A DNA stretch of 64,000 nucleotides from Vicinamibacterales bacterium (lineage in GTDB: Bacteria; Acidobacteriota; Vicinamibacteria; Vicinamibacterales; UBA8438), in assembly GCA_937766455.1 (NCBI GenBank), contig CALLXD010000024.1:19519-83518 (forward strand). The letters run 5' to 3'. Below the pieces are notes generated by a model. That model made no database searches. It was not told the DNA's origin and was given only the letters and a program-made list of their open reading frames with translations. The first letter of the stretch is position 1. Every line of letters starts with the position of its first letter. The position numbers and the translations under genes were made by a program. Of the stretch, positions 8,864 to 63,948 are shown piece after piece.

Positions 8864-8959
8864 GGTCAGGAGTGTATGCGCGACCAGCTCACCGCGGTCG
8901 CACGCGAGGCAACCACGTCCGTGCCTGCGTGGGCAACGGCACCGGCGGTGTGCCCGCGG

Positions 8960-14821: not shown

Positions 14822-14869
14822 CCGGCCCCAGAGGTGGAGGTCCGGTCAGTTACCGCGTGTGAGACAGAG

Positions 14870-24032: not shown

Positions 24033-24142
24033 AGCTCAGGTGTAAGCGTATCGCGGGGAGCGGTGGCAGTGCGCCGCGCGTGCCGCGGTCAACTCTGGCT
24101 ACGCGTCGTTGCGCGAGTACAATCGCGCGGTACCGTGAATTT

Positions 24143-24967
24143 ATGTTCCCTTCAGTAGACACCTACGCGTTCGATCTCGACCGGGTCCGGCGCGCGCACG
24201 CGCGGCGCAGGGCGCGGCATGGGGCGGTCGCTGTCTTCGCGGTCTGCGTTGCCTTGTGGGCGTCTGGCGTCTCGGCTCAGCCAGCCGATCTGGCGCAGGG
24301 CAAGCGGCTTTTCGAGAGCCAGTGCGGTAGTTGCCACGGTCCTCTTGGGAACGGCGGAAAGGGAGCCAACCTGGCCCAGCCTCGGCTGCGCCGGGCATCA
24401 GACGACGAGGCGCTGTTCAATATCATTCGGCGTGGAATCAGGGGGACCGAGATGCCGGGCTCGCCACTGACACCAAGCCAGGTGTCGAGCATCGCGGCCT
24501 ATGTGAGGACGCTGGGCCGCGTCGCCCCCGAGAACATCCCCGGCGACCGCATCCAGGGGCAAGGAGTCTATGCGTCGCTCGACTGCGCGCGGTGCCATAC
24601 CGTGGGTGGTCGTGGCGGGGTGGTCGGCCCCGGCCTCGGCGATATCGGAGCCCGTCGCAGTGCCGCCCACCTGCGCGAAGCGCTGACCGACCCCGCGGCT
24701 TCAGTGCCCAGTGGCTTTCTCCAGCTCCGTGTTGTCGCCCGAGACGGTCGTGCGTTTTCTGGGATCCGGGTCAATGAGGACGCATTTTCGGTGCAGTTCC
24801 TGGACCTCCAGGGGCGTCTGCACTCTTTCTGGAAAGACGAACTAGACGTCTTGGACCAGCAGTGGCAGCGGTCGCCGATGCCGAGTTATGCGGGCAGGCT
24901 GACCGCGGACGAGACCGATGATCTGGTCGCGTATCTGGTCTCGCTCAAGGGAGTTACGGACGAATGA
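24143..24967 (+). CDS. Dihaem c-type cytochrome (second domain resembles the Pirellula/Verrucomicrobium-type haem-binding domain)
   Basis: Signal-anchor AVAVFAVCVALWASGVSA. Two CxxCH motifs (CGSCHG, CARCHT). The second domain continues ...GPGLGDIG...LREALTDP...MPSY...L..DETDDLVAYL. Its stop overlaps the next gene's ATG (ATGA at 24964-24967). Confidence 0.8.
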   Translation: MFPSVDTYAFDLDRVRRAHARRRARHGAVAVFAVCVALWASGVSAQPADLAQGKRLFESQCGSCHGPLGNGGKGANLAQPRLRRASDDEALFNIIRRGIRGTEMPGSPLTPSQVSSIAAYVRTLGRVAPENIPGDRIQGQGVYASLDCARCHTVGGRGGVVGPGLGDIGARRSAAHLREALTDPAASVPSGFLQLRVVARDGRAFSGIRVNEDAFSVQFLDLQGRLHSFWKDELDVLDQQWQRSPMPSYAGRLTADETDDLVAYLVSLKGVTDE

Positions 24968-39724: not shown

Positions 39725-40906
39725 TCACCCCACCCGTGTTCCGCCCAGCACCGTCTCGCTGGGGAACAGTCGCTGGCGTCCTGTTCGAGGATTTCCGTAG
39801 TTGTCGAAGAACTCAAACGTGCCCTCGCGCAGTTCGAGCACGGCGACGTCGGCCGCGGCGCCCACGTTGAGCGTGCCCCGGTCGTGAAACACAGGGAAGA
39901 TGCGTGACGGATTGATCGTGGCGCGCGCGATCACCTCCACCAACGTCATGCCGAAAGTTCAGAAACTTCGACAGCACGTTGGGGAAGTCGATGACGCTCT
40001 CGGCGGCCGGGCTCGGTCGTGCTGCCGTCCGTCGAGACGCTGTCCGGCCAGAAGCCCGACTGAATGATGCGGTCGAACGTGTCCCACCGGAGATGGTCGA
40101 CCCGGCCGTTGGCGACGTCGAACCAGACGCCGCGCCGGCGCGCCGCGAGCACCTCCGGAAGGACCTGCCCGGCGTCATCGACAATGCTGTTGGGCGGCGG
40201 GGCCAGCATGTGGGTGACGATGTCTCCTGGCTTCAACTGGGCCAGCAGACTGGGTAGCGGCGAGGTCGTTTGGCCCATGTGGATCATCACCGGCAGGTTG
40301 AAACCGGTGGCCACCTCTTGGGCGCGACGCAAGACCTCGCCGTCGTCGGCGGCGACGCCTCTCGTCAACCGCGCCTTGACCCCCACGACGACATCACGGT
40401 GCCGCGCGACGGCGGCCGTTGCCGCGTCAACATCCGCAAGACGCAGGTCCATCGTGTCGCCATCGGGCAGGATGCCGCTGCGCCCGATGTTGATCAGGAG
40501 GCGGCCCGGCTGTGGCGACGCACGCACCACGGCGGCCATCTGGTCGAGTTGATCGGCTCCCGCCGAGCCGGCGTCGATCCATCCGGTGACACCACCGGAC
40601 AGCCCCAGGGCTGGGCCTGCCGACTCGCGAGCATAGTGCGTATGGATGTCGAGCAGCCCGGGGACGACGAGTTTCCCCGTCGCGTTGATGCACGTCCGCG
40701 GAACCAACCGCGATGTCGGTGCTGACCTCGGCAATGCGCCCACCCGCGATCGCCACGTCGCGGACAGCATTGAGCCGCAGCGAGGGATCGATGACCCGTC
40801 CCCCTCTGACAATCAGGTCATAGTCGGCGGCGAACGCGGCCGCTGCCCGAGAAAAGGTCAGCGCGCTCGCGGCGGCTGCATGCACGAACTGTCGCCGATT
40901 CATCAT
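39725..40906 (-). pseudogene. Amidohydrolase/deacetylase-family metallohydrolase with TAT signal, three frame interruptions (~40688-40693, ~40001-40010, ~39950-39953)
   Basis: Four collinear pieces: MMNRRQFVHAAAASAL...DLIVRGGRVIDP...IAGGRIAEVS; INATGKLVVPGLLDIHTHY...VMIHMG...; AAESVIDFPNVLSKFLNF; and GMTLVEVIARATINPSRIF...GAAADVAVLE. A single-base removal at each junction restores continuity. Confidence 0.75.
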
Positions 40907-41159
40907 CGTGTGTCGCCTCCTGGCCAGCGGTTGGGGAAATGCTGCGCGCAGTCGCCCCACATGTCAACACAGGGCCGCGGCTGCGGTGGCGCGGCGATGG
41001 CTTTCAGGGAATATGTGCGGCGGCGCGAGGCGGAGAGTCGGGCATAGGCGCAACGTGGCGCGATCCGCTTCCCGGTGCGACTGGTCCCAGAGCACGCGCG
41101 CGTGTGCTTTGGGGAGATAGCTGCATGATGCGGCGAACCCGCTGCTAGGGGAGCTCCAG

Positions 41160-42401
41160 ATGAATCGACTAATCACCGGGCTTGTCACTGTCGCGTTGGT
41201 CGGAATTCTGCCGTCGTCCGCGAGAGCGGGCCAGCCCGATGAACCGTTCGCGGCCGGCGGGATCGATGCGGTTCGGCTGCCGGACCCACCGATGGTGTAT
41301 GGCACCGCCGAGGGGCAGGGCATCCGGGTGAGCGTCATGACGGCTGGCCTGACCTACCCGTGGGGCTTTGCGTTTCTGCCAGACGGCAGCGTGTTGGTCA
41401 CGGAGCGCCTGGGCGCGCTGCGCGTGATTCGAAATGACGTGCTCGACCCGACACCGCTCTCCGGCGTGCCAGGGGTGTATACCGGCACCGCGCTGGCGGG
41501 TTTGATGGATGTCGCGGTGCATCCCGCGTTTTCTGACAACCGGTGGGTATACGTAACCTATTCGAAGCCCACTGAGACAGGCTCGACCGTGGCGCTGGCC
41601 AGGGGACGCCTGGAGGGGCACGGATTGTCCGAGGTGCGGGATCTCTTCGTGAGCAACGGCGATGGCTCGTCGGCAGGCGCGTCACGGCTGCTTTTTGCCC
41701 CCGACGGTACCCTCTTCATGACGCTGGGGGGTGCGTTCGGTGGGCGACGGCCGAGCGCCCAGGACCCAGGTAGCCATGTCGGGAAGATTCTCCGGCTGCG
41801 CGATGATGGCACCGCGCCAGAGGACAATCCGTTTGTCGGCCAGGCCGGGCGACGGTCCGAGGTGTTCTCGCTGGGACACCGGAATCCGATGGGGATCGCG
41901 CTGCATCCGGACACTGGCGAACTCTGGGCCAGCGAGCATGCTCCGCAGGGCGGCGACGAGGTCAATATCATCCACGCCGGCCAGAATTATGGGTGGCCCG
42001 ATGTGTCGTACTCCCGCGAATACACCGGCCCGCGTGTCGCAGACCGCCCATGGCGTGAAGAGTTCGAGCAGCCGGAGGTCGTCTGGATTCCGTCCATCGG
42101 ACCGTCAGGCCTGCTGTTCTACACCGGTGACCGTTTTCCTGCGTGGCAGGGCGATCTCTTCGTGGGCTCATTGATGACCGGGCGGGTCGAGCGTACGGGG
42201 CATCTGGAGCGCATCAAATTCAATCGCCGAGGTCTTGAACAGCGTCGCGAGTGGCTGCTCGCTGATCTCCGTCGGCGCATTCGGGACGTGCAACAGGGGC
42301 CAGACGGATTGATTTATGTGCTCACAGCGGGGAGCTTTCTCGGCATGGACCCGGCACGCGGCGACGCCGCGCTCTTGCGGATCGCGCCGGTGGGGCCGTG
42401 A
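41160..42401 (+). CDS. PQQ-dependent sugar dehydrogenase (soluble glucose/sorbosone dehydrogenase, six-bladed type)
   Basis: 413-aa ORF with signal peptide. Contains PWGFAFLPDGSVLVTER, GLMDVAVHPAF, GKILRLRDDGTAP.DNPF, SLGHRNPMGIALHP.TGELW.SEHAPQGGDEVNII..GQNYGWP and PSGL.FY.G. Confidence 0.85.
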   Translation: MNRLITGLVTVALVGILPSSARAGQPDEPFAAGGIDAVRLPDPPMVYGTAEGQGIRVSVMTAGLTYPWGFAFLPDGSVLVTERLGALRVIRNDVLDPTPLSGVPGVYTGTALAGLMDVAVHPAFSDNRWVYVTYSKPTETGSTVALARGRLEGHGLSEVRDLFVSNGDGSSAGASRLLFAPDGTLFMTLGGAFGGRRPSAQDPGSHVGKILRLRDDGTAPEDNPFVGQAGRRSEVFSLGHRNPMGIALHPDTGELWASEHAPQGGDEVNIIHAGQNYGWPDVSYSREYTGPRVADRPWREEFEQPEVVWIPSIGPSGLLFYTGDRFPAWQGDLFVGSLMTGRVERTGHLERIKFNRRGLEQRREWLLADLRRRIRDVQQGPDGLIYVLTAGSFLGMDPARGDAALLRIAPVGP

Positions 42402-42483
42402 GCACCGTTGGGCGGCGGTTGTGCACACCCAGATCTTCCCTGTCTTGACATGGCTCGGCATCTCACACACAGTGCGGACCACT

Positions 42484-44556
42484 ATGGATACATTTGCACG
42501 CAGATGCGTTGCCACCTTGGCTCTCGGCGCCGTAGCGCTTACGGGAAGCCTCCGGGCGCAAGCGCCTGAGCAGGCTGGCGATTATTCGTCCGGCGACTGG
42601 TCGTTTGCTGGGGGGGACCAGGGGAGCTCCCGCTATTCGACGCTGGCCCAGATTTCGACCGACACCATCGACCGGCTCGGGGGAGCCTGGGTCACACGCC
42701 TGGATGGGGGCGGATCATCACGGTCGACCCCAGTCGTCAAAGACGGCGTCATGTTCCTGACGGCAGGGCCCAGTGTGCATGCGGTCAGCGGAGCGACGGG
42801 TGAGGCCATCTGGCGCTGGCAATCCGACAATCCTGAGGCGCGGATGGTGCCGTCCTGGCAAGGGCTCGGTCTGGGTGGAGGCCTGGTATTCGTCGGGTTA
42901 GCGAGCGCTCAGGTCGCCGCGCTGAGCCAGGAGACGGGCGAACTGGTCTGGGCCTCAGCGGCAGGGAGTGTGCCACCTCAGGACGGTGAAACGGTCACGA
43001 CCGCGCCCGTGTACGCACGCGGGCAGGTGTTCGTGGGCGTGGCCAACGGCGACTCCGGTGGGCAGGGGCGCGTGGTCGCCCTCGATGCGGCGACGGGTGA
43101 GATCGACTGGGCGTTCTTCGTCGTGCCTCGACCTGGCGAATTTGGCCATGAGACATGGCCGCAGGGGTCGGACATCTGGGAGGTCGGTGGTGGCGGTGTG
43201 TGGCTCAATGGCAGCGTCGACCCAGAGCTGGGGTTGGTGTATTTCTCGACCGGCAACCCAGCGCCGATGTTCGGCGGTGAGCTGCGCGAGGGGGACAACC
43301 TGTTTACCGCGGCGGTCATCGCACTCGATATGGAGACCGGCGAGCGACGATGGCACTTCCAGGTCGTGCGCCACGATATCTGGGATGCGGACATCGCGAC
43401 ACCCATGTTGCAGTACGAGGTGGAGATGGGCGGCCAGACGCGCAAGGCGCTCGCCGCCATGCGGGCCGACGGCTTGCTCTTTCTCTTCGACCGAGAGACC
43501 GGTGAGCCCCTGATCCCGATCGAGCAGCGGCCGGTGCCGCAAGATGCTGGTCTGCTCACCGCCGACACGCAGCCGTTCCCAGTCGGAGCCGAGAGCATCA
43601 TTCCGGACTGTTCCTATTGGCGAGATCGTGTGCCCCCGCCGTTCGAGCTCAGTTGCAGCGCGTTCACGCCCCCCTCTGTCGATCAGGAGACCGTCGTCGC
43701 GCTCAGCTCTCCGATTCCGATGGTGCGGGTCACGCCGATGGCCTTCAGTCCGCAGACCGGGTACATCTATGCGCAGGGCCGAGGGCATGTCGGACGGGCC
43801 AAACGATTTGCCGATCCATGGATCTCGGACAATCGCCCAGGCGGCTATCTGCGCCTCGGGCTCCCAGAGTCGACCGGTGTACTGGCCGCCGTGGACCCGA
43901 CGACCAATACGGTCGCCTGGAAGCAAGATTTACCGGGTGGGCGATTGGGCACCAGTGGCCCGTTGGCGACGGCGGGTGGACTGGTGTTCTGGGGCGCGGC
44001 GGATGGCCAGCTTGACGCCTACGACGCCCAGACCGGCGAGCGCGTGTGGGCGTTTCAGGCCACCCCGGCCGGGACGCGGCTGCGGCCAGGGCCGACCGCG
44101 ACCTACGCCATCGACGGAAAGCAGTTCGTCACGATTCCGATGGGCAGCGAAATCTGGGCGTTTGCGCTGGACGGCACCGTGCCCCCGCGCGACGAACCGT
44201 TGGATGAGCCGTTGGCGGACCTGGTTCGCTGGACCGGACCGCCGCCTCGGGAGACCAACGAGGTGGAGACCTCCACCTTGCGCGAGAACCCCTCGTGGTC
44301 GCTTGGCGGCAGCCGGGGCGCGCTGGACGAGCACGCGTTCAACCCGCAGCGGGCCCAGATCACGGTCGGCGCACGTCTGCGCATTGTCAACAATGGCGAG
44401 CTCGGCCACACCGTGGTGGCGCAGGACGACAGTTGGACAACGGGCCTCATCGAGCCCGGGTTGTTCGGGACTGTGACCTTCGACCAACCCGGTACGTTCC
44501 TGTTCCATTGCGATGAGCATCCCTGGGCCCTGGGTGAGATCACCGTTGTTCCGTGA
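42484..44556 (+). CDS. PQQ beta-propeller dehydrogenase (glucose/quinate-like WDAD type) fused to a C-terminal cupredoxin domain (copy 1)
   Basis: Signal peptide present. Contains DWSFAGGDQGSSRYSTLAQIS, TPVVKDGVMFLT, YFSTGNPAPMFGG and VRHDIWDADIATP. Pro-rich linker. C-terminal FNPQRAQITVGARLRIVNNGELGHTVV...GTFLFHCDEHPWALGEITVVP. Confidence 0.85.
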   Translation: MDTFARRCVATLALGAVALTGSLRAQAPEQAGDYSSGDWSFAGGDQGSSRYSTLAQISTDTIDRLGGAWVTRLDGGGSSRSTPVVKDGVMFLTAGPSVHAVSGATGEAIWRWQSDNPEARMVPSWQGLGLGGGLVFVGLASAQVAALSQETGELVWASAAGSVPPQDGETVTTAPVYARGQVFVGVANGDSGGQGRVVALDAATGEIDWAFFVVPRPGEFGHETWPQGSDIWEVGGGGVWLNGSVDPELGLVYFSTGNPAPMFGGELREGDNLFTAAVIALDMETGERRWHFQVVRHDIWDADIATPMLQYEVEMGGQTRKALAAMRADGLLFLFDRETGEPLIPIEQRPVPQDAGLLTADTQPFPVGAESIIPDCSYWRDRVPPPFELSCSAFTPPSVDQETVVALSSPIPMVRVTPMAFSPQTGYIYAQGRGHVGRAKRFADPWISDNRPGGYLRLGLPESTGVLAAVDPTTNTVAWKQDLPGGRLGTSGPLATAGGLVFWGAADGQLDAYDAQTGERVWAFQATPAGTRLRPGPTATYAIDGKQFVTIPMGSEIWAFALDGTVPPRDEPLDEPLADLVRWTGPPPRETNEVETSTLRENPSWSLGGSRGALDEHAFNPQRAQITVGARLRIVNNGELGHTVVAQDDSWTTGLIEPGLFGTVTFDQPGTFLFHCDEHPWALGEITVVP

Positions 44557-44577
44557 GATGACGTTCCGTGAGATGAC
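44548..44577. repeat. Perfect 15-bp tandem duplication (GTTCCGTGAGATGAC x2) at the junction of the two PQQ-cupredoxin genes
   Basis: Read directly from the sequence: 44548-44562 equals 44563-44577. Copy 1 contains the last two codons and the TGA stop of the upstream gene. Confidence 0.9.
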
Positions 44578-44580
44578 ATC

Positions 44581-46677
44581 ATGACCGGCTATCTCGGCAG
44601 GTTGCTCGCCGCGGGCGTCGTGGGAACCCTGGCCCTGACCCCGAGCGTGCTCGCGCAGCCGCCAGAAAGCGGTCGTGGCTACCCGGCACAAGATTGGCCC
44701 CTCGTCGGTGGGGACTGGTCAGGGTCCCGGTACTCGCAGCTCACCGACATCACAACGGCCACGGTCGACCGGCTCAGCGGCGCCTGGGTGTCGCAGCTCG
44801 ACGGCGGCGCGGCGTCTCGCGCCACGCCGGTGGTGAAAGACGGTGTGTTGTATCTCACCGGTGGGGCCAATGTCTTTGCCATTGACGCCAGGACGGGCGA
44901 CACAATGTGGCGGTGGCAAACGCCCTCGTCCCACGAGCAGCGGGTGCCGTCCTGGCAGGGTGTCGCACTGGGCGGTGACCTGGTGTTCGTCGGGTTGCGG
45001 ACCTCTGAAGTTGCGGCGCTCCGCCAGGATACCGGCGAGCTTGTGTGGGTGCAGCCGGTAGGGAGCGTGCCACAAGCGTTCGGAGAGGCCGTGACGACCG
45101 CACCCATGTACGCGCAAGGACGGATCTTTGTCGGCGTGGCCAACGGCGATAGCGGGGGACAGGGGCGCATCGTCGCCCTGGACGCGGCGACCGGCGCGCT
45201 ACTGTGGACCTTCTTTGTCGTGCCGCGTCCGGGCGAGGCCGGACACGAAACCTGGCCGCAGGACTCAGACCACTGGCAACTCGGAGGGGGCGGGGTCTGG
45301 CTGGTGGGTACCGTCGACCCGGACCTGGGCTTGGTCTACTTTTCGACCGGAAATCCCGTGCCGATGTTCGGTGGCGAACTCCGGGCCGGCGATAACCTGT
45401 ACACCGCCTCGGTGCTCGCCCTCGACGTCGAGACCGGTGAGCGTCGGTGGCACTATCAGGTCGTGCGTCACGATGTCTGGGATGCGGATATTGCGACGCC
45501 CGTCCTGCTCTACGACACCCAGGTCGACGGTCAGCCCCGTAAGGCGCTCGCAGCCATTAGAGCCGACGGCCACCTCTTCCTGTTCGATCGCGGGACCGGC
45601 GAGCCGCTCAGTCCTATTGAACAACGGCCCGTTCCCCAAGATGCGAATCAACTGACGGCTGCGACGCAGCCATTTCCGGTGGCGGCCGAAAGCATCCTGC
45701 CGGATTGCTCGTTTTGGCGTGACAAGGTGCCACCGCCATTTCGGCTCAACTGCAGCGGGTTCACGCCGCCGTCGGTGGACCAACATACGATCGTGGCGCC
45801 CGGTGTCCCTATCCCGCGTGTGCGCGTGACGCCGATGTCCTACAGCCCGCAGACCGGCTACATCTATGCGCAAGGGGTGGCCATGGTCGGGCTGGCGAGA
45901 CGCCCTGCCGATCCGTGGCTGTCCAACGCGGGTGGTTTTCACCTGACGCTTCCGGAGCCGGTCGGCATCCTCGCCGCGTTTGATCCGCGGACCGGGCGAG
46001 TGGCGTGGAAGCAAGAGGTGCCCTCGAGTCTCCTCGGGACCAGCGGACCGCTGACGACCGCGGGCGGCTTGATGTTCAGAGGTGTCCCGGACGGGCTCGT
46101 GGAGGCCTACGATGCCCGGACGGGCGTGAAGCGGTGGGCGTTTCAGACTGTCCCCGATAGGGCCGCCGACGCGTCGGGGTCGAGAGTGGTGACCCGCCCC
46201 GGCCCCGCGGTGTCCTACCAGCTGGATGGCACCCAGTTCATCGCGGTACCGATGGGGCGAGAGCTCTGGGCCTTCCGCCTCGACGGACCCGTTGCCGCCC
46301 GTGGTGTGCCGGTCGCGGATCCCTGGGCAGGTCTTCCACCGTCAGGCCCGGCGCCCCGCGCGACGAGAGCCATCGAGACCGCGACCCTCATCGAGAATCC
46401 TTCGTGGTCGATCGGCGGCCGGCGCTACGCGATTCGTGAGCACGACTTCAGTCCGGTGCGGGCGCAGGTCGTCGCCGGCGTGCCGGTGCGCGTCGTCAAT
46501 AACGGCGAGATGGCGCACACGATCGCCGCTCGAGACGCGAGCTGGACCACCAAGACCCTTGAGCCGGCGGGGTGGGAGTTCGTGACCTTCGACGAGCCAG
46601 GCACCTTTCTCTATCATTGCGTCGAACATCCGTGGGCGATTGGCGAGGTCACGGTCGTGGCGGACGACGGGCCGTGA
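44581..46677 (+). CDS. PQQ beta-propeller dehydrogenase fused to a C-terminal cupredoxin domain (copy 2)
   Basis: Paralog of 42484-44556, collinear throughout. Contains DWPLVGGDWSGSRYSQLTDIT, YFSTGNPVPMFGG and VRHDVWDADIATP. C-terminal FSPVRAQVVAGVPVRVVNNGEMAHTIA...GTFLYHCVEHPWAIGEVTVV. Confidence 0.85.
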   Translation: MTGYLGRLLAAGVVGTLALTPSVLAQPPESGRGYPAQDWPLVGGDWSGSRYSQLTDITTATVDRLSGAWVSQLDGGAASRATPVVKDGVLYLTGGANVFAIDARTGDTMWRWQTPSSHEQRVPSWQGVALGGDLVFVGLRTSEVAALRQDTGELVWVQPVGSVPQAFGEAVTTAPMYAQGRIFVGVANGDSGGQGRIVALDAATGALLWTFFVVPRPGEAGHETWPQDSDHWQLGGGGVWLVGTVDPDLGLVYFSTGNPVPMFGGELRAGDNLYTASVLALDVETGERRWHYQVVRHDVWDADIATPVLLYDTQVDGQPRKALAAIRADGHLFLFDRGTGEPLSPIEQRPVPQDANQLTAATQPFPVAAESILPDCSFWRDKVPPPFRLNCSGFTPPSVDQHTIVAPGVPIPRVRVTPMSYSPQTGYIYAQGVAMVGLARRPADPWLSNAGGFHLTLPEPVGILAAFDPRTGRVAWKQEVPSSLLGTSGPLTTAGGLMFRGVPDGLVEAYDARTGVKRWAFQTVPDRAADASGSRVVTRPGPAVSYQLDGTQFIAVPMGRELWAFRLDGPVAARGVPVADPWAGLPPSGPAPRATRAIETATLIENPSWSIGGRRYAIREHDFSPVRAQVVAGVPVRVVNNGEMAHTIAARDASWTTKTLEPAGWEFVTFDEPGTFLYHCVEHPWAIGEVTVVADDGP

Positions 46678-48058: not shown

Positions 48059-49972
48059 GTGAACTCGATAATGCGCCGCCGCCTGTTCTGGCTGCTGCTT
48101 CTGATGGCGGTGGTGCTGATCGGCAGCGCTTCGTCTCAGTTCGGCGCTGGAGAATCCCCCCTCAGCTTCAGTGAATTTATCCGATTGGTGGATACCGGTC
48201 AGGTCGACCGCGTGGTGATTACCGGCAACGAAATCGTCGGCACCTCCCTGAGCGGCGAGCCATTTCGGACTTATGCGCCGGAGCAATACGAAGGCCTCGC
48301 CAATCGGCTGATCGAGCGAGATGTCGTCATCCAAGCCAAATCGGCCGCGCCCAGCACCCTGTTGACCTTCCTGTACGGATGGGCGCCGATGTTGCTGATT
48401 GTCGGCTTCTTCCTGTTCTACATGCGTCAAGCGCAGAGTGGCGGCAACACGGCGATGTCATTTGGGAAGAGCCGCGCCAAGCAGTCGCCGACGACACAGA
48501 AAAAAGTGACGTTCAAGGACGTCGCCGGCGTGAACGAGGCAAAAGAAGAACTCCAGGAGATTATCGATTTTCTGAGGGAGCCGCAGAAGTATCAAAAGTT
48601 GGGTGGACGTATCCCCAAGGGCGTGCTCTTGACCGGGCCTCCAGGGACCGGTAAGACGCTGCTCGCGCGCGCTGTCGCCGGTGAGGCCAGCGTGCCGTTC
48701 TTCTCCATCAGCGGTTCCGACTTTGTGGAGATGTTCGTCGGTGTTGGCGCATCCAGGGTCCGGGATCTGTTCGAACAGGGCAAGAAGAACGCGCCGTGCA
48801 TCGTGTTTATCGACGAAATCGACGCGGTTGGTCGGCATCGTGGGGCCGGTCTGGGTGGCGGTCACGACGAGCGCGAGCAGACGCTGAATCAGTTACTGGT
48901 TGAGATGGACGGGTTCGAGGCGAACGAAGGGGTCATTTTAGTCGCGGCCACCAACCGCCCCGACGTGTTGGACCCAGCCTTGCTGCGCCCGGGGCGCTTC
49001 GATCGGCGCATTGCGGTCGACCGACCGGATGCTCTGGGTCGCGAAGGGATCCTCGAGGTCCACACGCGCAAGATTCCGCTCGCGGATGACGCGGACCTAC
49101 GGGTGCTGGCCCGGGGCACGGTCGGTTTCGTCGGCGCGGATCTGGCCAATCTCATCAACGAGGCGGCCTTGCACGCCGCGCGCTACAACCAGAAGACCGT
49201 GCAGATGCAGGACCTCGAATTCGCCAAGGATAAGGTGATGATGGGATCCGAGCGCCGGTCGCTGGTGCTCAGCGACGAGGAGAAGAAGGTGACGGCGATC
49301 CACGAGGCCGGCCACGCCCTGCTGGGCTCTGTGCTGGAGCACGCCGACCCCATCCACAAAGTCACGATTATTCCCCGAGGTCAGGCGCTCGGGGTGACTC
49401 AGCAGTTGCCGGTGGAGGACAAGCACAACTATTCCGCTGAGCACTTGCACGACCGGGTGGCGGTGTTGCTTGGCGGCCGAATCGCCGAGGAACTGACCAA
49501 TATCGAGGTGACGACCGGTGCGGGCAACGACCTCGACCGGGTGACTGACTTGGCCCGCCGTATGGTCTGCGAGTGGGGCATGAGCGATGCCATTGGGCCG
49601 CTGACGTTCGGTCGGAAAGAGGAGCAGGTCTTCTTGGGCCGAGGCTTCGGTCAGCAAAAAGCCTACAGCGAGGACACCGCGAACACGATCGATCGGGAAA
49701 TCAAGCGCATCGTGACGGAAAATTACGATCGCGCGCGTGCCATCCTGACAGAGCAGCAGAGCGCGCTGCGCCAAATTGCCCAGGAGCTGCTGACGCGAGA
49801 AGTGCTGTCAGGCGCGCAGGTGCGGCAGATCATCGCGGGAGAGCCGCTGGCGGACCCGGTCGAGGCGGTGCCGGTCTTGGCGGATCCGCCTCCGCGTGAG
49901 GCGGAAGCTGAGGCCGAGGCCGAGCGGCCGCCGGTCGTGCCGTCGCTCGGCGGGCCGATCCCACAGGAATAG
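48059..49972 (+). CDS. ftsH: ATP-dependent zinc metalloprotease FtsH
   Basis: 637-aa ORF with two N-terminal TM segments. Walker A GPPGTGKT, Walker [32 protein letters not shown] and Zn motif HEAGHAL. Confidence 0.95.
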
Positions 49973-50039
49973 GGCCTCACCTACGAGCCGCCCCGCCGCG
50001 GGCCTCACGGCGCGCCACGACCGACGTCACAGGGGACAT

Positions 50040-51284
50040 ATGACCAGACGGACCGTCGCTCAGGTCGCAGCGCTCGGCCTGGGAATCGTGTTGGTCACGA
50101 CCACCGCGTCCTCTCAGACCTCGCAGCCAGTCACGAGCGGGCCCGCACTCGACGGGTCCCCGGGCTGGTTTCTACAAGGATCATTCCCCGACCCAGGTGG
50201 GCGCACGCGCGTGGACCCGGACGGGCGAGTCACCATCGTGCCTCGGGATGAGGCGGGCGGCTATCGCACCAGCACGGGCGAGATCCCGCGGTGTCGTCGC
50301 TCGCCGGTCTGTGGGAATGATGTGGGCCGCCGTCGTCAGACACTCGAACGTGTCCAGTGGGAGCAAACCCTGGGGTACACGTTTACCTACCTTGATGTGT
50401 TGCCCGCCGGCCTCGGGGGTGTCCCTGCGGTGGGGCTCGATTCGGCCGAGAATCTCTGGGTGTTTCAGCGTGCGGAGGTCGGCCAGCCGCAGCTCTTGAA
50501 ATTTGATCCGAACCACCGGCTGCTGGTGCAGGTCGAGCCGGAGGTGATCGGCTACCAGGACAAGGCTCACGGCATGGCGGTGGACGCCGACGACAATGTC
50601 TGGATCACCGCCACCAATGGCGCGACGGTGATGAAACTGAGCCCTGAGGGAGAGCTACTGCTGACGATCGGAGAACGAGGGCGGCGGGGCGATTGGGATG
50701 AAGCGCGCGGCCAGCGACTGCTCTGGCAACCCGTCATGGTCGCCTTCGGTCCCACGGGCGACGTCTATATTGCCCAAGGACACGGGAACGAAAGCCCGAA
50801 TGACACCGGCTCGGATGACCCATCCAACAATATCGGCGCCGCCAGGATTCTGCGTCTCGACAAGGACGGCAATTTCATTCAGCAATGGTTCGGGAACGAG
50901 GCTGGGCCAGGGAAGTTCAACTCGGCGCACGGGCTTGCCGTCGATCCAATGAACGGTGACGTCTGGATCGGCGACCGTGAGGATTATCGGATCGTCGTCT
51001 ATGCCGGTGACGGGACGTTTCGCAAGACGCTCCCGATGCGCAATCTTCCGTGCGCGCTGTACTTCGACTCGCATGGCAGACCCTGGATGGCGAGCGGGCA
51101 GGACGGTCAGTTTCTGCAACTCGATCGGAACGGGAAGGTGCTCGGCGCGATCGGCAACGGGATGGGCATCGGAGAGGGGCAGTTCATCGAAGCGAGCTAC
51201 TGGGTCATGGACCGACAGGACAATCTGTACGCCGGTGACACGGCGGTCGGTCGCATTACCAAAATGGTCGCCCCCACACGATAG
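50040..51284 (+). CDS. NHL-repeat six-bladed beta-propeller protein, secreted
   Basis: ATG at 50040 with signal peptide. Repeated NHL-like units (AHGMAVDADDNVWIT, GPTGDVYIAQGHG, FNSAHGLAVDPMNGDVWIGDREDYRIVVY, DNLYAGD). Confidence 0.7.
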   Translation: MTRRTVAQVAALGLGIVLVTTTASSQTSQPVTSGPALDGSPGWFLQGSFPDPGGRTRVDPDGRVTIVPRDEAGGYRTSTGEIPRCRRSPVCGNDVGRRRQTLERVQWEQTLGYTFTYLDVLPAGLGGVPAVGLDSAENLWVFQRAEVGQPQLLKFDPNHRLLVQVEPEVIGYQDKAHGMAVDADDNVWITATNGATVMKLSPEGELLLTIGERGRRGDWDEARGQRLLWQPVMVAFGPTGDVYIAQGHGNESPNDTGSDDPSNNIGAARILRLDKDGNFIQQWFGNEAGPGKFNSAHGLAVDPMNGDVWIGDREDYRIVVYAGDGTFRKTLPMRNLPCALYFDSHGRPWMASGQDGQFLQLDRNGKVLGAIGNGMGIGEGQFIEASYWVMDRQDNLYAGDTAVGRITKMVAPTR

Positions 51285-51319: not shown

Positions 51320-52576
51320 CTACGTGAACATACCCAGCGTCTGGAACTTGCTTCCGAGTATGTCCTCGGACTGCTTGTGACCCAGGAACTCCTCGATGAG
51401 CGTGGCGTAGACACGGCGGAAGTCCGTCGTGTGCTGCAAGTTGTCGCCGTGTACCAGCTCGGTCAGGCTGGGCGGGGTGCTGTACTGACCACCGGTCACT
51501 CCGCCACCAAGGACGAATGAGACGTTGGCGGTGCCGTGGTCGGTCCCGAGGCCTGTGTTCTCCGGCACGCGTCTTCCGAACTCGCTATGGACCAGAATCG
51601 CGACCTCGTCTTCCTTGCCGAGACGTTTCATCTCCTCAAAGAAGCCCCACACGGCGTCTGAGCAGTACTGGACCTGCCGATTGTGTGGGCTCTCCTGGTT
51701 CACATGCGTGTCGAACAGGCTGTTTCTGAGCCGCACATAGTAGAGCCGCGCGGGGAAGTCGTTCTCGATCAACGCCACGACTTTGTCGAGGTCCAGCAGT
51801 CGCAGGTCTGGATTGCGGGTCTCGTTGTAATTGCTCCATGCCTGACGGACCAGCGCCGAGGCCTCACGGGCGCCCTGGTTCACGTCCAGCAGGAACTTGT
51901 GCGCGTCACTTCTGGGCGCCTGCCCGTTGCCCAACTGCTCGATGCCCGCGCGTTGTGGGCTGAGCAGGTCCCGACCAAAGGCGTTCGGGTCATTGAAGAC
52001 GACCGGGACATGGTCGCGGGCGCGCACGGACAAGGTCTGGGCGTCGGCGATATTCACCAGGTAATTCGATGTGCCTGACGGGTCGAGCGCGTCCGCCGTG
52101 CGCCCATACCAGCCATACGGCTCGCCGCTGTTGGGGGCGCCGGTGTGCCAGTAGGAGCTTGAGGCGAAGTGGGAAAATGATGGTTGATCGTAGCCGGCGC
52201 CGTGAATCACGGCGAGCTTGCCCTCGTCCCACATGCGGTGCATGCCGACCATCGAGCGCTGGAAACCGAAGTGCTCGTCGACCTTGATGACATCGGACTC
52301 GCGGACGCCAATGTTGGGCCGTTGTTGGTACAGCGCGTCGTCGCCGTACGGGACGAACGTGCTCAGGCCATCGTAGCCACCAAACCATTCGAAGACGACC
52401 AGAATCTTGCCCTCGGTGGCGGCGAGCGCTTCGGACGCCGCCCCGAACAACGGGGGCAACGGTCCCAGGCCGCCAAGCATGCCGAGCCCGAGGCCGCGGG
52501 CGCCGATCTTGAGCGCTTGACGGCGTGACACGCCGCTCAGGTCACACAGCTTCTTCCGTCGGTCTGTCATGGTCAT
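51320..52576 (-). CDS. DUF1501 domain protein (sulfatase/alkaline-phosphatase-like fold, TAT signal)
   Basis: 418-aa ORF. Leader SRRQALKIGARGLGLG. Contains FEWFGGYDGLS..VP, HGAGYDQPSFSHF, SEFGRR..EN...GTDHG and other family-typical segments. Confidence 0.85.
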   Translation of the reverse strand: MTMTDRRKKLCDLSGVSRRQALKIGARGLGLGMLGGLGPLPPLFGAASEALAATEGKILVVFEWFGGYDGLSTFVPYGDDALYQQRPNIGVRESDVIKVDEHFGFQRSMVGMHRMWDEGKLAVIHGAGYDQPSFSHFASSSYWHTGAPNSGEPYGWYGRTADALDPSGTSNYLVNIADAQTLSVRARDHVPVVFNDPNAFGRDLLSPQRAGIEQLGNGQAPRSDAHKFLLDVNQGAREASALVRQAWSNYNETRNPDLRLLDLDKVVALIENDFPARLYYVRLRNSLFDTHVNQESPHNRQVQYCSDAVWGFFEEMKRLGKEDEVAILVHSEFGRRVPENTGLGTDHGTANVSFVLGGGVTGGQYSTPPSLTELVHGDNLQHTTDFRRVYATLIEEFLGHKQSEDILGSKFQTLGMFT

Positions 52577-52615: not shown

Positions 52616-54475
52616 CTAATTAATCTGATATTCGGGTGTGCTCATGATGAGGTGCGTCACCATGCGCAGTGGATCTTCCAAATAGGTCTGCGCGCGAGCC
52701 AGGTCCGTGGTGCCAAGCTCGTCGCCCAGCATCTCGATGAGCGCATTCCGCATGTCGGCCGAGACAGGCAGCCGGAGGAACCGCTCCAGCAAGGCATCGA
52801 CAGCCTCCGTCGTGGTCGTCGCGCCGGATGCCAGCACGAGAGACGCCACGTCGACCCTGGCCGCGCCTCGCGGGGTTGGGATCAACTTGCGCATGGCGTG
52901 GGCCCACGCCTGATAACCAGATACCCGGGTATTGAACAGTTCGTCACGTTCCTGGTTGGCCATGTCGAACGCCGTCATCATGTTCGGGTTGTCGTCCGGA
53001 TCATCGACCAGCGCAATGGCGGCGCTGAAGTCGAGACCGCGTCGCAGGCGCTCGCCGACCACGCCGTCTCCGCTGCGGGGGAGGAAGTTGGGATCGTTGA
53101 AATCGATGACATTCGGGAACAAGTAGTCAAAGGCGACGTTGCCCCGCTCCTGAAGCAGCGCCGGCGTAATCCACGAACGGCCCTGCGCCCACCCGGCCAC
53201 CGATGGCGGATTCAGCAGATGCTGGCCCAACGCGATCGTCGTCCGGTTGAAATCAGGGACACCGGGCACGTCCGCGGCCCCCAGTTGCTTCAGCATCGTG
53301 ACCACGTGCTCGACGGGGCCCTTGATGTGGGAGGCATGGCTGGCCTCGCTGTAGAAGTCGCGCGACAAGAAAATCGTCGCCAGCAGCGGGCGCAGCTCGT
53401 AGTCGTTGTCCCGCAACACCGCACCGAGTTTGGCGGACAGGGCGGGTGACACCTCGTCGCGCACGAAGAAGCGGTAGATCTTGGAGCCGATGTACTCAGC
53501 CGTGACCGGCTGCTCGAGGATGATCTTGAGCACGTCCACGCCGTCAAAGTTGCCGGTGCGGCCGAGGAAGGTCTTCGGATCGTCATCGTGATGCACGGTG
53601 TTGACGACAAAGTCCAGATTCTCGAAATTCCATCCCGTGAACGCGCGGGCACCCTCGCGCACATCCTTTTCCGTGTAGTTGCCGACGCCCATCGTGAAGA
53701 GTTCCATCACCTCGCGCGCGAAGTTCTCGTTGGCGGCCCCCTTCACGTTCACGCCCGCATCGAGGTAGTACAGCATCGCCGGATCCTGGGCGACGGCGAT
53801 GGCCAACTCGCCGAAATTACCGGTGGCGTGCCGCTCAAATAGCTCGATTTGCCCGATCATCTTGCGATAGTCGCGAACCTTGTTCTGGGCGGTGGCGAAG
53901 TGACCGTGCCAGAAGAGCGCCATCTTCTCCTCAAGCGGCTGATCGGTGTCGAGCATGCGCTCGGCCCACCAGTAGCCGACCCGGCGAGTCTCGAGCTGGG
54001 TCGCGCGCAGCCAGTAGAAGAATCGGTCGGAGATGGGCTGCATGTGACGGTTGACACCCTCCGGTTTGACCCGGATGCCCATACTCTCGCCATTTCTCAT
54101 GGCGAGTTCGGTCGCGGCCGGCCGACTCGGAGGGAAATGCGTGAGGGTAGGGTCCCAGAACCCGGAATGCTCAAACGCGGGCAGGCGGTCATTCGGTATC
54201 TTCTCGTAATAGACGAGAGACCGGACTGCCTCCTCAGGCGACATATTCGCCAATGTTTGGATATCTTCCGGGCTGCCGCTGAAGCCGGCGCGGTCAAGCA
54301 GGTGTTCGGCGCTCTCGTAGGTCCAATCCGCCCCGGTGACGGGTGTCAGGTCGTCTATCCAGGACGCGGGCCCTGGCTCTGCCGCGATCAGGCGGGTATC
54401 CCCGGCGTGCCCGGCCATCACGAACGCCAGCGCAGCGCCGGTGAGTGCCAGATGCCGGCGGAATCGAGTTGTCAT
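52616..54475 (-). CDS. DUF1800 domain protein
   Basis: 619-aa ORF immediately upstream of DUF1501 on the same strand, which is the canonical pairing. Contains LFWHGHFAT, REVMELFTMGVGNYTE.DV.E.ARAFTGW and PPSVAGW. Confidence 0.85.
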   Translation of the reverse strand: MTTRFRRHLALTGAALAFVMAGHAGDTRLIAAEPGPASWIDDLTPVTGADWTYESAEHLLDRAGFSGSPEDIQTLANMSPEEAVRSLVYYEKIPNDRLPAFEHSGFWDPTLTHFPPSRPAATELAMRNGESMGIRVKPEGVNRHMQPISDRFFYWLRATQLETRRVGYWWAERMLDTDQPLEEKMALFWHGHFATAQNKVRDYRKMIGQIELFERHATGNFGELAIAVAQDPAMLYYLDAGVNVKGAANENFAREVMELFTMGVGNYTEKDVREGARAFTGWNFENLDFVVNTVHHDDDPKTFLGRTGNFDGVDVLKIILEQPVTAEYIGSKIYRFFVRDEVSPALSAKLGAVLRDNDYELRPLLATIFLSRDFYSEASHASHIKGPVEHVVTMLKQLGAADVPGVPDFNRTTIALGQHLLNPPSVAGWAQGRSWITPALLQERGNVAFDYLFPNVIDFNDPNFLPRSGDGVVGERLRRGLDFSAAIALVDDPDDNPNMMTAFDMANQERDELFNTRVSGYQAWAHAMRKLIPTPRGAARVDVASLVLASGATTTTEAVDALLERFLRLPVSADMRNALIEMLGDELGTTDLARAQTYLEDPLRMVTHLIMSTPEYQIN

Positions 54476-59324: not shown

Positions 59325-59414
59325 GTGCGGCCCGGTGACGCCGACGTGACGTTGAGCGGCCCCGGAACGCGGCCCTCGCGGAGGCGGCGTTCATTCCCAG
59401 GGAGGTGTGTGGTG

Positions 59415-60563
59415 ATGCGTGTACTTCTTGCCGCCGTACTGGTTGTGCTCAGTGTGGCATTGACCCCGGCTCTGGCGCAGACGGTGCCTGAGCTCCCGTT
59501 CGAGTCGGTGCCCAATCCGTTGAAGTTGCCCAACGACATCCACTTCGGTGAAATCGCCGGCGTGGCGGTCAATTCAAGCGGGCATGTCTTCGTCTTCTCG
59601 CGCGGCAATTCGGTGGGGCCGTCCTATATGGCCACCGCGTCGCAGTTGCTCGAGTTCGATGCCAGCGGCAATTTCGTCCGCGAGATTGGGAAGAACCTGA
59701 ACGCGTGGTCCTACGCCCACGCCGTACGCATCGACCCACAGGACAATATCTGGGTGGTCGACAAGGGCTCGAACATGATTCTCCGCTTTACCCCGGAGGG
59801 GCACGTGGATTGGGTCTTTGGGCGCAAGGGCGAGGCGTCGCACCTCATCGTGCCTCCCGACTACCAGACCGTGATGGCCCGGCTCCTCGAGCGGGCGGGG
59901 GTGCCCGTGGACATTCCGGAAGAGAACAACCCGCGCTGGCCGCTTCCTGTGCATCGAGACAACGTCTTCAACCAGCCGACCGACGTCGCGTGGGATTCAC
60001 AGGGGAACTCCTATTTCAGCGATGGGTATATCAACTCGCGAGTGGGGAAGGCCAACGCGCGAGGGGAATGGGTGGCGAGCTGGGGCTCGCTTGGCAGCGG
60101 GCCCGGCCAGTTTGATACGCCACACGGCATTGCGGTCTCCCCAGAGGATGAGATCTTTGTGGCCGATCGCGGCAACCGGCGCGTGCAAGTGTTCGACCCC
60201 GACGGTACGTATCTGCGCGAATTCGTGGTGGACGTCCCGGTGGACACGACACGGGGCAAGATCGTCTACGGGCGTGAGACACCGAATGCAACGACGGGCT
60301 CTACGGCACCCGGGGCGCCCGACGCGTTGTGCATGACGCCCGGGCCCAACCCGGTGCTCTTTATCGGTGACATTTATCCGAGCCGCGTCTACAAAGTGTC
60401 CCTCCAGGGCGAGGTGCTGGGCGTGTACGGCCAACCCGGTCGAAACCTCGGCGAGTTTGGTTGGATTCATGGCATCGCGTGTCCATCCGAGGACGAGATC
60501 TGGGTGGCCGAGTTGATCAACTGGCGAGTGCAGAAGCTCGTGACGAAGGGCACGGACAACTAG
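59415..60563 (+). CDS. NHL-repeat six-bladed beta-propeller protein, secreted
   Basis: ATG at 59415 with signal peptide. NHL units (GVAVNSSGHVFVFSRG, AVRIDPQDNIWVVDKGSNMILRF, QFDTPHGIAVSPEDEIFVADRGNRRVQVFDPDG, IHGIACPSEDEIWVAE). Confidence 0.7.
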   Translation: MRVLLAAVLVVLSVALTPALAQTVPELPFESVPNPLKLPNDIHFGEIAGVAVNSSGHVFVFSRGNSVGPSYMATASQLLEFDASGNFVREIGKNLNAWSYAHAVRIDPQDNIWVVDKGSNMILRFTPEGHVDWVFGRKGEASHLIVPPDYQTVMARLLERAGVPVDIPEENNPRWPLPVHRDNVFNQPTDVAWDSQGNSYFSDGYINSRVGKANARGEWVASWGSLGSGPGQFDTPHGIAVSPEDEIFVADRGNRRVQVFDPDGTYLREFVVDVPVDTTRGKIVYGRETPNATTGSTAPGAPDALCMTPGPNPVLFIGDIYPSRVYKVSLQGEVLGVYGQPGRNLGEFGWIHGIACPSEDEIWVAELINWRVQKLVTKGTDN

Positions 60564-62541: not shown

Positions 62542-63948
62542 CTAGCAGCCCGTGGTAGAAGCACCGCTTCGTAAATCGAGAGATAGGTGTTCGTGACACC
62601 CAGTCATCAGGTCGATAGCGAAGGAAGTCGGCGGATCTGGCGTCTCAAGCGGCCCGGCGGGCCAGACCCGGGTCCAGAGGCGGCTGAGCGTGGCGATCAC
62701 GGCGGCGAACGCCGCCCCCGTGCGGCCCTGGAGGCTCCGCGGCGTCCCCACCCCGGACAGCTGCCGCAGGAGCAGCCCGAGGTTGAACCCGCAGACCTGG
62801 ACGAGCAGACGCGTGAGGATGTTGGGGTGGCCCCGGAGATGCACGCGACGCATCCCGCCCGTCTCGTAGAGATGCGCGTTGGGGCGTTCGAGCCGCTCGC
62901 CGCGCTGCCGCAACAGCCGCTTCCCGCGCACCCCGCGGATCCGCCGGCGGTTGGCATACACCGCCTGCTTGGCCGCCGCCTGGCCCGTCCAGTTGCGCCG
63001 CCCGCGATCCGGCTCCGACACGTAACTGCGCACCCCCATGTCAGCAAACTCGACCAGCGTCTGATTGCTGTGGTACCCCTTGTCGGCGACGACCTCGGCG
63101 AGCCCGGTGGGCGCGACCTCCACCAGCTGGTCCGCGGCCACGGTGAGGGTCTCGACCAGGGAGGTGGTGTCGCCCGCGTCGGCGTCCTGCACCGTGATGC
63201 CCACGATGGCCCCGGTCTCCAGGTCGACCGCGTGCTCGGCTTTGTGCGCCAGATGCGTGCGGCCGTCCTTCATCTTGGTGATCTTGGCGTCGGGATCGTT
63301 GGGATGGGTCCAGTCGTCGTTGGACCCCTTCTTCTTCCGCGTCCGATCGAACCGGGCCAGCTCCGCGCGGGTCGGCGTCGTGATCCCGGAGGCCTCGGCG
63401 AGGCGGGTCAACCACGCGTCATACCCTTCGCCGGTCTCCCGCCGCACGATGCTCCGCATCGCCGCGTTCGCTTCCAGCGTCGTCGCGTCGATCCCGATCG
63501 TGTACCCCTGCACCAGCTGGGCGTCCGCCAAGCGCTGCAACACCCACGTGAACACCGCCTGATGCGTCTCGAGGTCGATCAAGCGACGGGTGCGGGACAG
63601 CGTAGAGTGGTCCGGCGGCGCCTCGTGCAGCCCGAAATCCAGAAAGGTGCGGATACTCAGCGAATCGGCCGCCCGCCAGGCGATCGCGCGTTCCGAGTCC
63701 AAACCTTCGAAGTACCCCAGCAGCAGCCGCCGGAAATACCGCCCCGGCGCCAGACTCGGCCGGCCCCGCGTCGCGGCATAGAACGGCGCGCACTGGCCCT
63801 CGACGAAGACATCACAGCCCGCGTCGTCCAGCAGGCGGTTCAGTCGCTCGTAGAACGGGTGCCCGGCACTCCGCGGCAGATCCCCCGTCGCGACCCACAG
63901 GCTCGCCTGTCGGTCGCGTTTCCCCTTCGTTCCCATCGCCATGCACAC
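62542..63948 (-). mobile_element. IS5/IS1182-like DDE transposase gene (IS ends not identified; element probably runs past the window edge)
   Basis: 468-aa ORF. N-terminal SLWVATGDLPRSAGHPFYERLNRLLD and SERAIAWRAADSLSIRTFLDF, then IDATTLEANAAMRS, VVADKGYHS and a C-terminal RLERPNAHLYETGGMRR.HLRG. This layout is typical of IS1182/IS5-group transposases. Confidence 0.8.

Follow-up and report, generated by a model that had tools for sequence, protein, structure and literature searches.

A Tandem Gene Pair Joining a PQQ-Type Beta-Propeller to a Cupredoxin Domain in a Vicinamibacterales Bacterium

In this contribution, we describe two adjacent genes, which we call A and B, found in a stretch of 64,000 nucleotides (nt) of contig CALLXD010000024.1 from a Vicinamibacterales bacterium (positions 19,519 to 83,518 of the forward strand; hereafter, the window, in whose numbering all coordinates are given). 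The products of both genes join an eight-bladed beta-propeller of the type that binds pyrroloquinoline quinone (PQQ) to a C-terminal cupredoxin, the fold of small blue-copper proteins. The best reading of their sequences is that they are predicted Sec-exported, periplasmic two-domain oxidoreductases. With a confidence that is only a little better than even, we favour the view that A and B are "quinocuproproteins", i.e., PQQ-type dehydrogenases in which copper takes over the role that haem has in type II quinohaemoproteins. A bolder proposal, which we hold tentatively and at distinctly less than even chances, is that they represent a natural quinocuproprotein class where a lanthanide-PQQ site is wired to a blue-copper centre that naturally has no axial Met and that replaces haem c. 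An earlier reading of this DNA, made from the letters alone (the sequence-only reading), knew of no characterised PQQ dehydrogenase with a built-in copper module, and we likewise encountered no description of a PQQ-cupredoxin enzyme in the full-text literature searched for such a fusion and in papers on the PQQ and lanthanide enzymes of these phyla.

The Gene Pair and Its Domain Architecture

Gene A occupies positions 42484-44556, stop codon included, and encodes a protein of 690 amino acids (aa); like all features of A and B described below, it lies on the + strand. It is defined by the list of open reading frames (ORFs), a match to Pfam family PF01011, its homologues and an AlphaFold model. 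The enclosing ORF extends from 42316 to 44556, and we placed the start of the gene at the ATG at 42484 (Met57 of the ORF) because a Sec-type signal peptide follows this Met and the starts of homologues coincide with it. Gene B (44581-46677, 698 aa; ORF list, Pfam and BLASTP) is a paralogue with the architecture of A, to which it is 63% identical over the full length. The sequence-only reading had described two same-strand paralogues of about 690 aa separated by 24 bp; this description is accurate, and all motifs that it quoted are present in both translations. Since no terminator-like site is found in the 24-nt spacer between the genes (44557-44580), A and B are likely co-transcribed. A perfect 15-bp tandem repeat (two copies of GTTCCGTGAGATGAC, 44548-44577) takes in the final two sense codons of A, its stop codon and most of this spacer.

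In both proteins, a signal peptide is followed by an eight-bladed propeller of the PQQ type, which a Pro-rich linker (about 40 residues) connects to a C-terminal cupredoxin, 83 aa long in A. Inspection of the sequence predicts a Sec signal peptide for A at residues 1-25 (42484-42558), with cleavage after L-R-A (MDTFARRCVATLALGAVALTGSLRA/QA), and the residue that follows, Gln26, is nearly invariant across the fusion family. A twin-arginine translocation signal, for which the motif 'ARRC' of A was considered, was rejected because B has a single Arg and the motif is poor. The only cysteines of A are Cys8, Cys376, Cys391 and Cys676; the haem-binding motif CxxCH is present in neither protein, and the Pfam scan detected no cytochrome match in A or B. 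A full-length AlphaFold model of A, built on 75 family sequences, has a mean predicted local distance difference test score (pLDDT) of 81.5 and a predicted template modelling score (pTM) of 0.84, with residues 1-3 and 15-32 modelled at low confidence.

The C-Terminal Cupredoxin and Its Ligands

The linker of A (residues 564-607; 44173-44304) includes a conserved E-(I/V)-E-T-x-T-L strand, seen in the conservation table and in the secondary structure of both models (full length and domain only), that precedes the cupredoxin. The cupredoxin itself, as delimited by a family profile searched against the PDB and by a model of the domain, comprises residues 608-690 of A (44305-44553); its counterpart in B, delimited by Pfam and by BLASTP against A, comprises residues 612-698 (46414-46674). 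In a phmmer search of the PDB, the last 104 aa matched the C-terminal cupredoxin of entry 9cck at an E-value of 7e-10. For the family profile, made of 38 sequences, the E-values were 8e-16 with the same domain and 8e-9 with amicyanin, among whose entries 2idq, an engineered M98A mutant, scored best. The model of the cupredoxin alone (pLDDT 88) has exclusively cupredoxins as its top Foldseek matches, namely 9cck (2.7e-8), the "purple" cupredoxin 5fc9, plastocyanins and amicyanins, with template modelling scores of about 0.65-0.73. On these sequence, profile and fold searches, the C-terminal domain is a cupredoxin, and we call it so despite Pfam scores below threshold, which are considered further on.

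An ungapped HMMER alignment of the loop 'tflyhctehPWaiGeitve' with 'TYDYHCTPHPFMRGKVVVE' of amicyanin places Cys676, His679 and Ala682 of A on amicyanin Cys92, His95 and Met98, and His642 aligns with His53. The first of the two His ligands, His642, is encoded by 44407-44409, and the ligand loop C-D-E-H-P-W-A by 44509-44529. The motif NNGE..H has its last residue at His642 in A and at His646 in B. The ligands of B are His646 (46516-46518), Cys680 (46618-46620) and His683 (46627-46629), with Ala686 (46636-46638) at the Met position. Neither protein, then, has the axial Met (or Gln) of a canonical site, this position being Ala in both. Three claims of the sequence-only reading are borne out by these results: that the C-terminal domain is a cupredoxin, on which profile and Foldseek searches agree, that its loop is in register with the amicyanin loop, and that both copies have Ala in place of the axial Met. 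The domains are far from the amicyanin equivalog family TIGR02657, which has a cut-off of 110 bits and with which they score 13.2 and 17.4.

The ligand set is widely conserved. Among 186 distinct cupredoxin domains of the family, the residues at positions 642, 676, 679 and 682 form the pattern H-C-H-A in 154 (83%), H-C-H-M in 10 (5%) and H-C-H-S in four. Taken position by position, 176 of these domains have His642, 172 have Cys676 and 184 have His679, and Ala takes the Met position in 172, as against 10 domains with Met and four with Ser, so that the conservation of both the ligands and the Ala, named as a test by the sequence-only reading, was confirmed. The His-Cys-His triad is among the 17 invariant columns, out of 101, of a family alignment (A2). 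A-type and B-type proteins form separate orthologous groups, with orthologues of B 74-97% identical in other genomes; the A/B tandem is kept in three related loci (L002, L006 and L017), and other tandem pairs are found in five (L026, L045, L066, L071 and L072). By their sequences, A-type and B-type are old, separately conserved groups, both of which retain the ligand set.

How the domain of the fusion family differs from its relatives can be seen from 597 cupredoxin domains of non-PQQ proteins aligned to the family model, in which the positions in question are His in 587, Cys in 539, His in 538 and Met in 449. Since these sister domains carry the canonical ligand set, the PQQ-linked domain descends from genuine blue-copper modules. 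Besides the axial Ala, the fusion family has Asp or Glu at position 678 where the relatives have Leu, Ile or Phe, Glu616-His617 where they have Asp and Phe/Asn, and Trp651 where they have Phe; His675 is also specific to the clade. Because of these further changes around it, the copper site looks remodelled rather than simply decayed.

The Propeller and Its PQQ Pocket

The propeller of A spans residues ~34-563 (42583-44172), as defined by PF01011 and TIGR03075, which together cover residues 34-554, and by Foldseek. PF01011 matches the two proteins at E-values of 1e-81 and 2e-81, and the best solved matches of the full-length model of A are the quinohaemoproteins 1yiq, 1kv9 and 1kb0 and the dehydrogenase PedH (6zcw), at 1e-37 to 1e-39 and 26% identity. 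A and B score 308.5 and 305.8 bits with TIGR03075 (methanol/ethanol family; cut-off 480), 188 and 178 bits with TIGR03074 (glucose/quinate; cut-off 832) and 292 and 322 bits with TIGR04528 ("acido-empty-quinoprotein group A"; cut-off 650), the last of these aligning with residues 36-371 only. Every curated NCBIfam cut-off tried was thus missed, so that the propellers of A and B form a clade of their own. By the same scores, this propeller is nearer to the alcohol dehydrogenase type than to the glucose/quinate type. Membership in the latter was rejected on the TIGR03074 scores and because the N-terminus is a single signal peptide and not a membrane domain. The sequence-only reading had likened the motif WDADIATP to the WDMD of glucose/quinate enzymes; this likeness has to be abandoned, and since the propeller is closer to the alcohol dehydrogenase type, W-D-A-D is better compared with the D-x-D of the lanthanide-dependent PedH and XoxF.

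The residues of the pocket were mapped by profile alignment to PedH and to 1kb0, the numbering of which in the alignment agrees with that of its pocket residues, Glu70, Cys116-Cys117, Arg122, Glu185, Trp245, Asn263, Asp308 and Lys335. The stacking Trp245 is kept as Trp240 in A. The metal-ligand Asn263 is kept as Asn258, in the motif STGNP that starts at residue 255 (43246-43260), and Asp308, the catalytic base and metal ligand, is kept as Asp301, in W-D-A-D-I that starts at residue 300 (43381-43395). The position of the metal-ligand Glu185 falls in GDSGGQG, which starts at residue 189 (43048-43068). Two positions beyond Asp301 is Asp303, which corresponds to an Asp in PedH (WDFD) and to Thr310 in the calcium-type 1kb0; it is kept in at least 90% of the family, which thus has the D-x-D that marks the XoxF/PedH type. 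This motif suggests that a lanthanide may be bound at the PQQ site. Across the family, Asp190, Asn258, Asp301, Asp303 and Trp240 are invariant or nearly so.

Two further elements of the propeller deserve mention. A family-specific insertion (residues 375-394; 43606-43665 in A and 45703-45762 in B), delimited by the family alignment and by comparison within the window, contains the invariant Cys376 and Cys391, between which a disulfide is possible; the whole Cys376/Cys391 insertion of about 25 residues is absent from the two other eight-bladed PQQ enzymes of the window. The loop P-M-F-G-G-E-L that comes after Asn258 (residues 261-267) is invariant in sequence and has the lowest confidence of the model (pLDDT 44); it may be ordered only when the cofactor is bound.

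Distribution and Three-Module Variants

The fusion is, judging from homologous sequences, common in the order Vicinamibacterales. Among species-representative genomes, no fewer than 585 loci carry it, and the top 77 of them belong to metagenome-assembled genomes labelled Vicinamibacterales, Vicinamibacteria or "Acidobacteria"; the closest one, L002 (contig CAWWAF010000010.1), is labelled "uncultured bacterium" and its protein is 97% identical to that of gene A. The 120 homologues listed are nearly all full length (560 to ~745 aa) and 64-97% identical. Annotation pipelines have named members of the family "PQQ-binding-like beta-propeller repeat protein", "quinohemoprotein ethanol dehydrogenase" and "glucose dehydrogenase/plastocyanin".

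An exhaustive HMMER search with the cupredoxin domain returned 5,537 relatives at E <= 1e-3, the closest of which are multi-cupredoxin proteins with 3-12 tandem domains. Full-length fusions of ~690 aa were not listed in this representative search, where the family is present as fragments only, and the H-P-W-A loop occurs only in those hits that are fragments of PQQ fusions. A word-indexed search with the C-terminal domain gave 11 scored candidates, among which there was no free-standing H-P-W-A cupredoxin, all 11 being either fragments of the fusion or gene calls of it with an internal deletion.

The same material contains rare variants in which the end of a propeller and a cupredoxin (H-P-W-S/A/T) are followed by a third module, a CxxCH cytochrome c (P0239, P0241, P0281-P0286, P0290 and P0291). 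They are gene fragments on short metagenome contigs of at most ~9 kb. A cytochrome c appended at this place is what would be expected of a redox relay.

Proposed Mechanism

If, as we infer, PQQ, its metal and copper occupy their sites and the two domains dock onto each other, then an alcohol, sugar or aldehyde would be oxidised at the PQQ-metal centre of the propeller, where the metal, to judge from the D-x-D motif, is possibly a lanthanide. The two electrons would leave one at a time via the fused copper centre, the counterpart of the C-terminal haem c of type II enzymes, and would then pass to a soluble periplasmic carrier and on to the respiratory chain. Electron transfer between a quinoprotein and a cupredoxin has a precedent: type II quinohaemoprotein alcohol dehydrogenases (ADHs) pass electrons to the cupredoxin azurin, their natural acceptor (PMC8348568). 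As for the cofactor, PQQ could be scavenged from outside; within the Acidobacteria, importers of the PqqU type have been reported from Vicinamibacteria alone, and there without PQQ biosynthesis (PMC12124388). Up to 70 predicted lanthanide-PQQ dehydrogenases have been reported in genomes of marine Acidobacteria (PMC11996626).

The copper may be three-coordinate, or its coordination may be completed by water, by a residue of the propeller, or by residues at the Glu616-His617 or Asp/Glu678 positions. If so, the electron exit would be unusually tuned, with a site that is possibly of high potential or accessible to ligands. Natural type-1 sites without an axial ligand, such as those of fungal laccases with Leu or Phe at this position, have raised potentials, and the engineered M98A amicyanin reportedly remains a type-1 site.

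Arguments against the Quinocuproprotein Reading and Alternatives to It

Several observations weigh against this reading of A and B. On the side of copper, the scores of the Pfam models Cupredoxin_1 (PF13473; 22.0 and 19.6 bits, cut-off 27) and Copper-bind (PF00127; 20.1 bits, cut-off 21.2) remain below their gathering cut-offs. At least one ligand has been lost in 18 of the 186 family domains (~10%), with the patterns RSHA in seven, HSHA in six, RCHA in three, and HSYA and HCPA in one each. In the RSHA sub-clade (L011, L013, L014, L015, L016, L019 and L062) the first His is replaced by Arg and the Cys by Ser, and the copper site is lost while the rest of the cupredoxin, including Glu616, Trp651 and H-P-W-A, is retained; six of these are A-type orthologues of ~76% identity, L062 has 65%, and the gene is at ~8001-10070 in most of these loci. 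In one of the three-module fragments, P0285, neither the Cys nor the second His is left, and yet the cytochrome c is still present. The domain can therefore persist without copper. In addition, neighbourhood clustering of 79 related loci revealed neither a conserved copper chaperone gene nor a conserved gene of an electron acceptor (cytochrome c) nearby.

It is thus conceivable that the cupredoxin is mainly a structural cap or a docking module with a vestigial or optional metal site, and that electrons of PQQ go directly to an external acceptor, for example a soluble cytochrome c or cupredoxin. The ligand-less domains and P0285 speak for this alternative, as does the fact that the non-ligand residues Glu616, Trp651 and Trp681 are conserved even better than the ligands, in 185-186 of the 186 domains. 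We nevertheless consider it unlikely, because His-Cys-His is present in ~90% of the domains, in two old paralogous groups and in invariant columns of alignment A2, because some members bear the full canonical His-Cys-His-Met set, and because no partner gene is conserved nearby.

On the side of PQQ, A and B fail the cut-offs of TIGR03075, TIGR03074 and TIGR04528, and the nearest NCBIfam family bears the name "acido-empty-quinoprotein". Their pocket differs from that of every characterised enzyme aligned: the vicinal Cys116-Cys117 of 1kb0 is replaced by Arg120-Met121 (in MVPSWQG), the metal-ligand Glu185 by the invariant Asp190, Arg122 by Gln126, Glu70 by Arg80, and Lys335, the position of the Lys or Arg near C5 of PQQ, by Ala328, with an invariant Arg327 beside it. 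No gene of PQQ biosynthesis or import was detected among the Pfam-scanned ORFs of the window, of which several have no family, three short ORFs having been left out of the scan.

These observations are also the case for the second alternative, by which the propeller is an "empty" homologue of quinoproteins that has no PQQ and binds something else, or in which copper is the sole redox centre; the TIGR04528 scores, as high as those of the alcohol dehydrogenase family, point the same way. Set against them are the invariant or nearly invariant metal-binding core and stacking residue (Asp190, Asn258, Asp301, Asp303 and Trp240), the reports of PqqU in Vicinamibacteria (PMC12124388) and of large predicted repertoires of lanthanide-PQQ dehydrogenases in marine Acidobacteria (PMC11996626), and the consideration that a fused one-electron carrier makes most sense beside a redox cofactor. 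An empty propeller therefore seems to us quite improbable. Since the metal core is kept but several residues of the pocket have changed, we regard the use of PQQ by A and B as probable rather than demonstrated.

A third alternative is that the Met-less copper is not an electron relay but a reactive site, at whose open axial position small ligands (O2, nitric oxide (NO), nitrite or others) would bind, so that A and B would act as PQQ-dependent oxidases or reductases. In its favour, the axial Ala is clade-specific, alongside Asp/Glu678, Glu616-His617 and His675, and the closest solved domains are from Nitrosopumilus copper enzymes, including the purple cupredoxin 5fc9, which reacts with NO. This alternative is nevertheless very unlikely in our view, because nothing observed here points directly to reactivity, sites of the Cys-His-His kind typically serve electron transfer, the cytochrome c of the three-module variants fits a relay, and M98A amicyanin reportedly remains of type 1. 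We thus return to the quinocuproprotein reading as the one we favour.

Genomic Context

The window also encodes other enzymes of the PQQ type. Directly upstream of A there is a gene of a six-bladed PQQ sugar dehydrogenase of the GSDH family (41160-42401, +; PF07995, E-value 5e-112). A GSDH neighbour recurs in 13 of the 79 related loci, where GSDH genes and other PQQ propellers are the recurring neighbours; many six-bladed enzymes of the GSDH type have been reported to bind lanthanides (2026 preprint, 10.64898/2026.07.10.737718). The clustering revealed no conserved pqq gene near the fusion, and neighbouring PQQ paralogues of ~640-770 aa checked in the related loci carry no haem or cupredoxin tails. 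The two largest neighbour "families" without a Pfam assignment may be spurious, i.e., alternative-frame ORFs of DNA with a high G+C content.

The second enzyme (24964-26586, +) is a classical eight-bladed one that has kept the vicinal Cys-Cys (in VTCCGQVNRG), the Glu, the Asn, D-Y-D and the Arg. The start of its gene is overlapped by 4 nt by a cytochrome c gene (24080-24967, +; PF00034/PF13442), and by its sequence it looks like an XoxF/ExaF-like enzyme of the lanthanide type with its own cytochrome partner. Unlike this enzyme, A and B have no adjoining cytochrome c gene, just as they have no haem motif. The third enzyme (14834-16552, +; 572 aa), also eight-bladed, is without Cys-Cys and has kept the Glu, D-V-D and the Lys; a SnoaL-like gene (14279-14821) is located upstream of it. 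No gene of methylamine dehydrogenase was found among the Pfam-scanned ORFs of the window.

Elsewhere in the window, an amidohydrolase gene is split over overlapping frames (39946-40960, -), its N-terminal part with an RR-type signal being at 40427-40960 and the rest at 39946-40812; the gene has either undergone a frameshift, become a pseudogene or been misassembled. Genes of NHL-repeat/SGL propellers are present at 49896-51284 and 59325-60563, a DUF1501 gene (51320-52576) and a DUF1800 gene (52616-54475) form an adjoining pair on the - strand, and near the end of the window there is a DDE transposase gene (DUF772 and DDE_Tnp_1; 62542-63948, -), the third-position GC fraction of which, 0.88, is above that of its neighbours.

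Significance

The known PQQ dehydrogenases deliver their electrons to ubiquinone, to a haem domain fused to them or to a cytochrome c that is a protein of its own. If confirmed, a copper relay built into the enzyme would be the fourth solution to the wiring of these enzymes and the first case where the chemistry of PQQ, and probably of a lanthanide, is joined to that of copper within one polypeptide. The family also provides a natural series of axial ligands (Ala in ~83%, Met in 5%, the site lost in ~10%) for studies of type-1 copper tuning, with a consensus that resembles the M98A mutant. The Vicinamibacterales hosts are abundant and mostly uncultured bacteria of soil and sea with very large repertoires of PQQ enzymes, and how such enzymes are tied into respiration matters for carbon turnover and for the dependence of these communities on copper, lanthanides and PQQ. 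Direct-electron-transfer biosensors call for single-chain dehydrogenases that expose a one-electron centre at their surface, and the proteins described here might be put to such a use.

Comparison with Known Systems

Amicyanin, in particular its M98A form (2idq), shares with the cupredoxin of A and B the length and register of the ligand loop, Y-H-C-x-x-H-P-aromatic-X-x-G, the N-x-x-x-x-H context of the first His and an extra N-terminal strand, but it is a free-standing protein that has the axial Met. Amicyanin serves methylamine dehydrogenase, which depends on tryptophan tryptophylquinone (TTQ) and is also a quinoprotein. The closest solved relative of the domain, in the multicopper oxidase/NirK-like protein of Nitrosopumilus maritimus (9cck), is likewise a cupredoxin at the C-terminus of an oxidoreductase; its loop is C-T-L-H-P-W-M, with the axial Met present, as opposed to C-D-E-H-P-W-A, and the domain is fused to a multicopper enzyme and not to a PQQ propeller. 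The multi-cupredoxin proteins with 3-12 domains (e.g., P0131 and P0138) are ~30-35% identical per domain and have in common with the fusion family the framework (W/F)-x-N-x-G...H-T-V-x-A-x-D-G-S-(F/W); they differ in lacking a PQQ propeller and in their loop, which is the canonical C-x2-H-P-x-M, with Met in 449 of the 597 domains aligned. The PQQ-cupredoxin-cytochrome c fragments agree with A and B in the end of the propeller, the cupredoxin clade and the motifs of the linker, and differ in the extra CxxCH cytochrome c.

On the side of the propeller, PedH and XoxF (6zcv and 6dam) are the best PDB matches of the family profile (8e-73) and have in common with A and B the stacking Trp, the Asn ligand and the W-D-x-D motif, whose extra Asp is taken to mark lanthanide enzymes. 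They differ in retaining both the Cys-Cys and the Glu ligand and in lacking a fused redox domain, instead of which a separate cytochrome c is used. The overall architecture is that of the type II quinohaemoprotein ADHs (1kb0, 1kv9 and 1yiq), which are also periplasmic and consist of an eight-bladed PQQ propeller, a linker and a C-terminal one-electron domain of ~90-100 aa. Their tail is a CxxCH cytochrome c whereas that of A and B is a cupredoxin; the identity is only 26%, the vicinal Cys-Cys is absent from A and B, and Glu185, Lys335, Arg122 and Thr310 are changed to Asp, Ala, Gln and Asp, respectively. By this analogy, the best-supported reading is that A and B would work like the quinohaemoprotein ADHs and yet are not members of that family, having no CxxCH and scoring below the family cut-offs. 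They behave as a new type within an already known class, that of quinoproteins with a fused electron-transfer domain.

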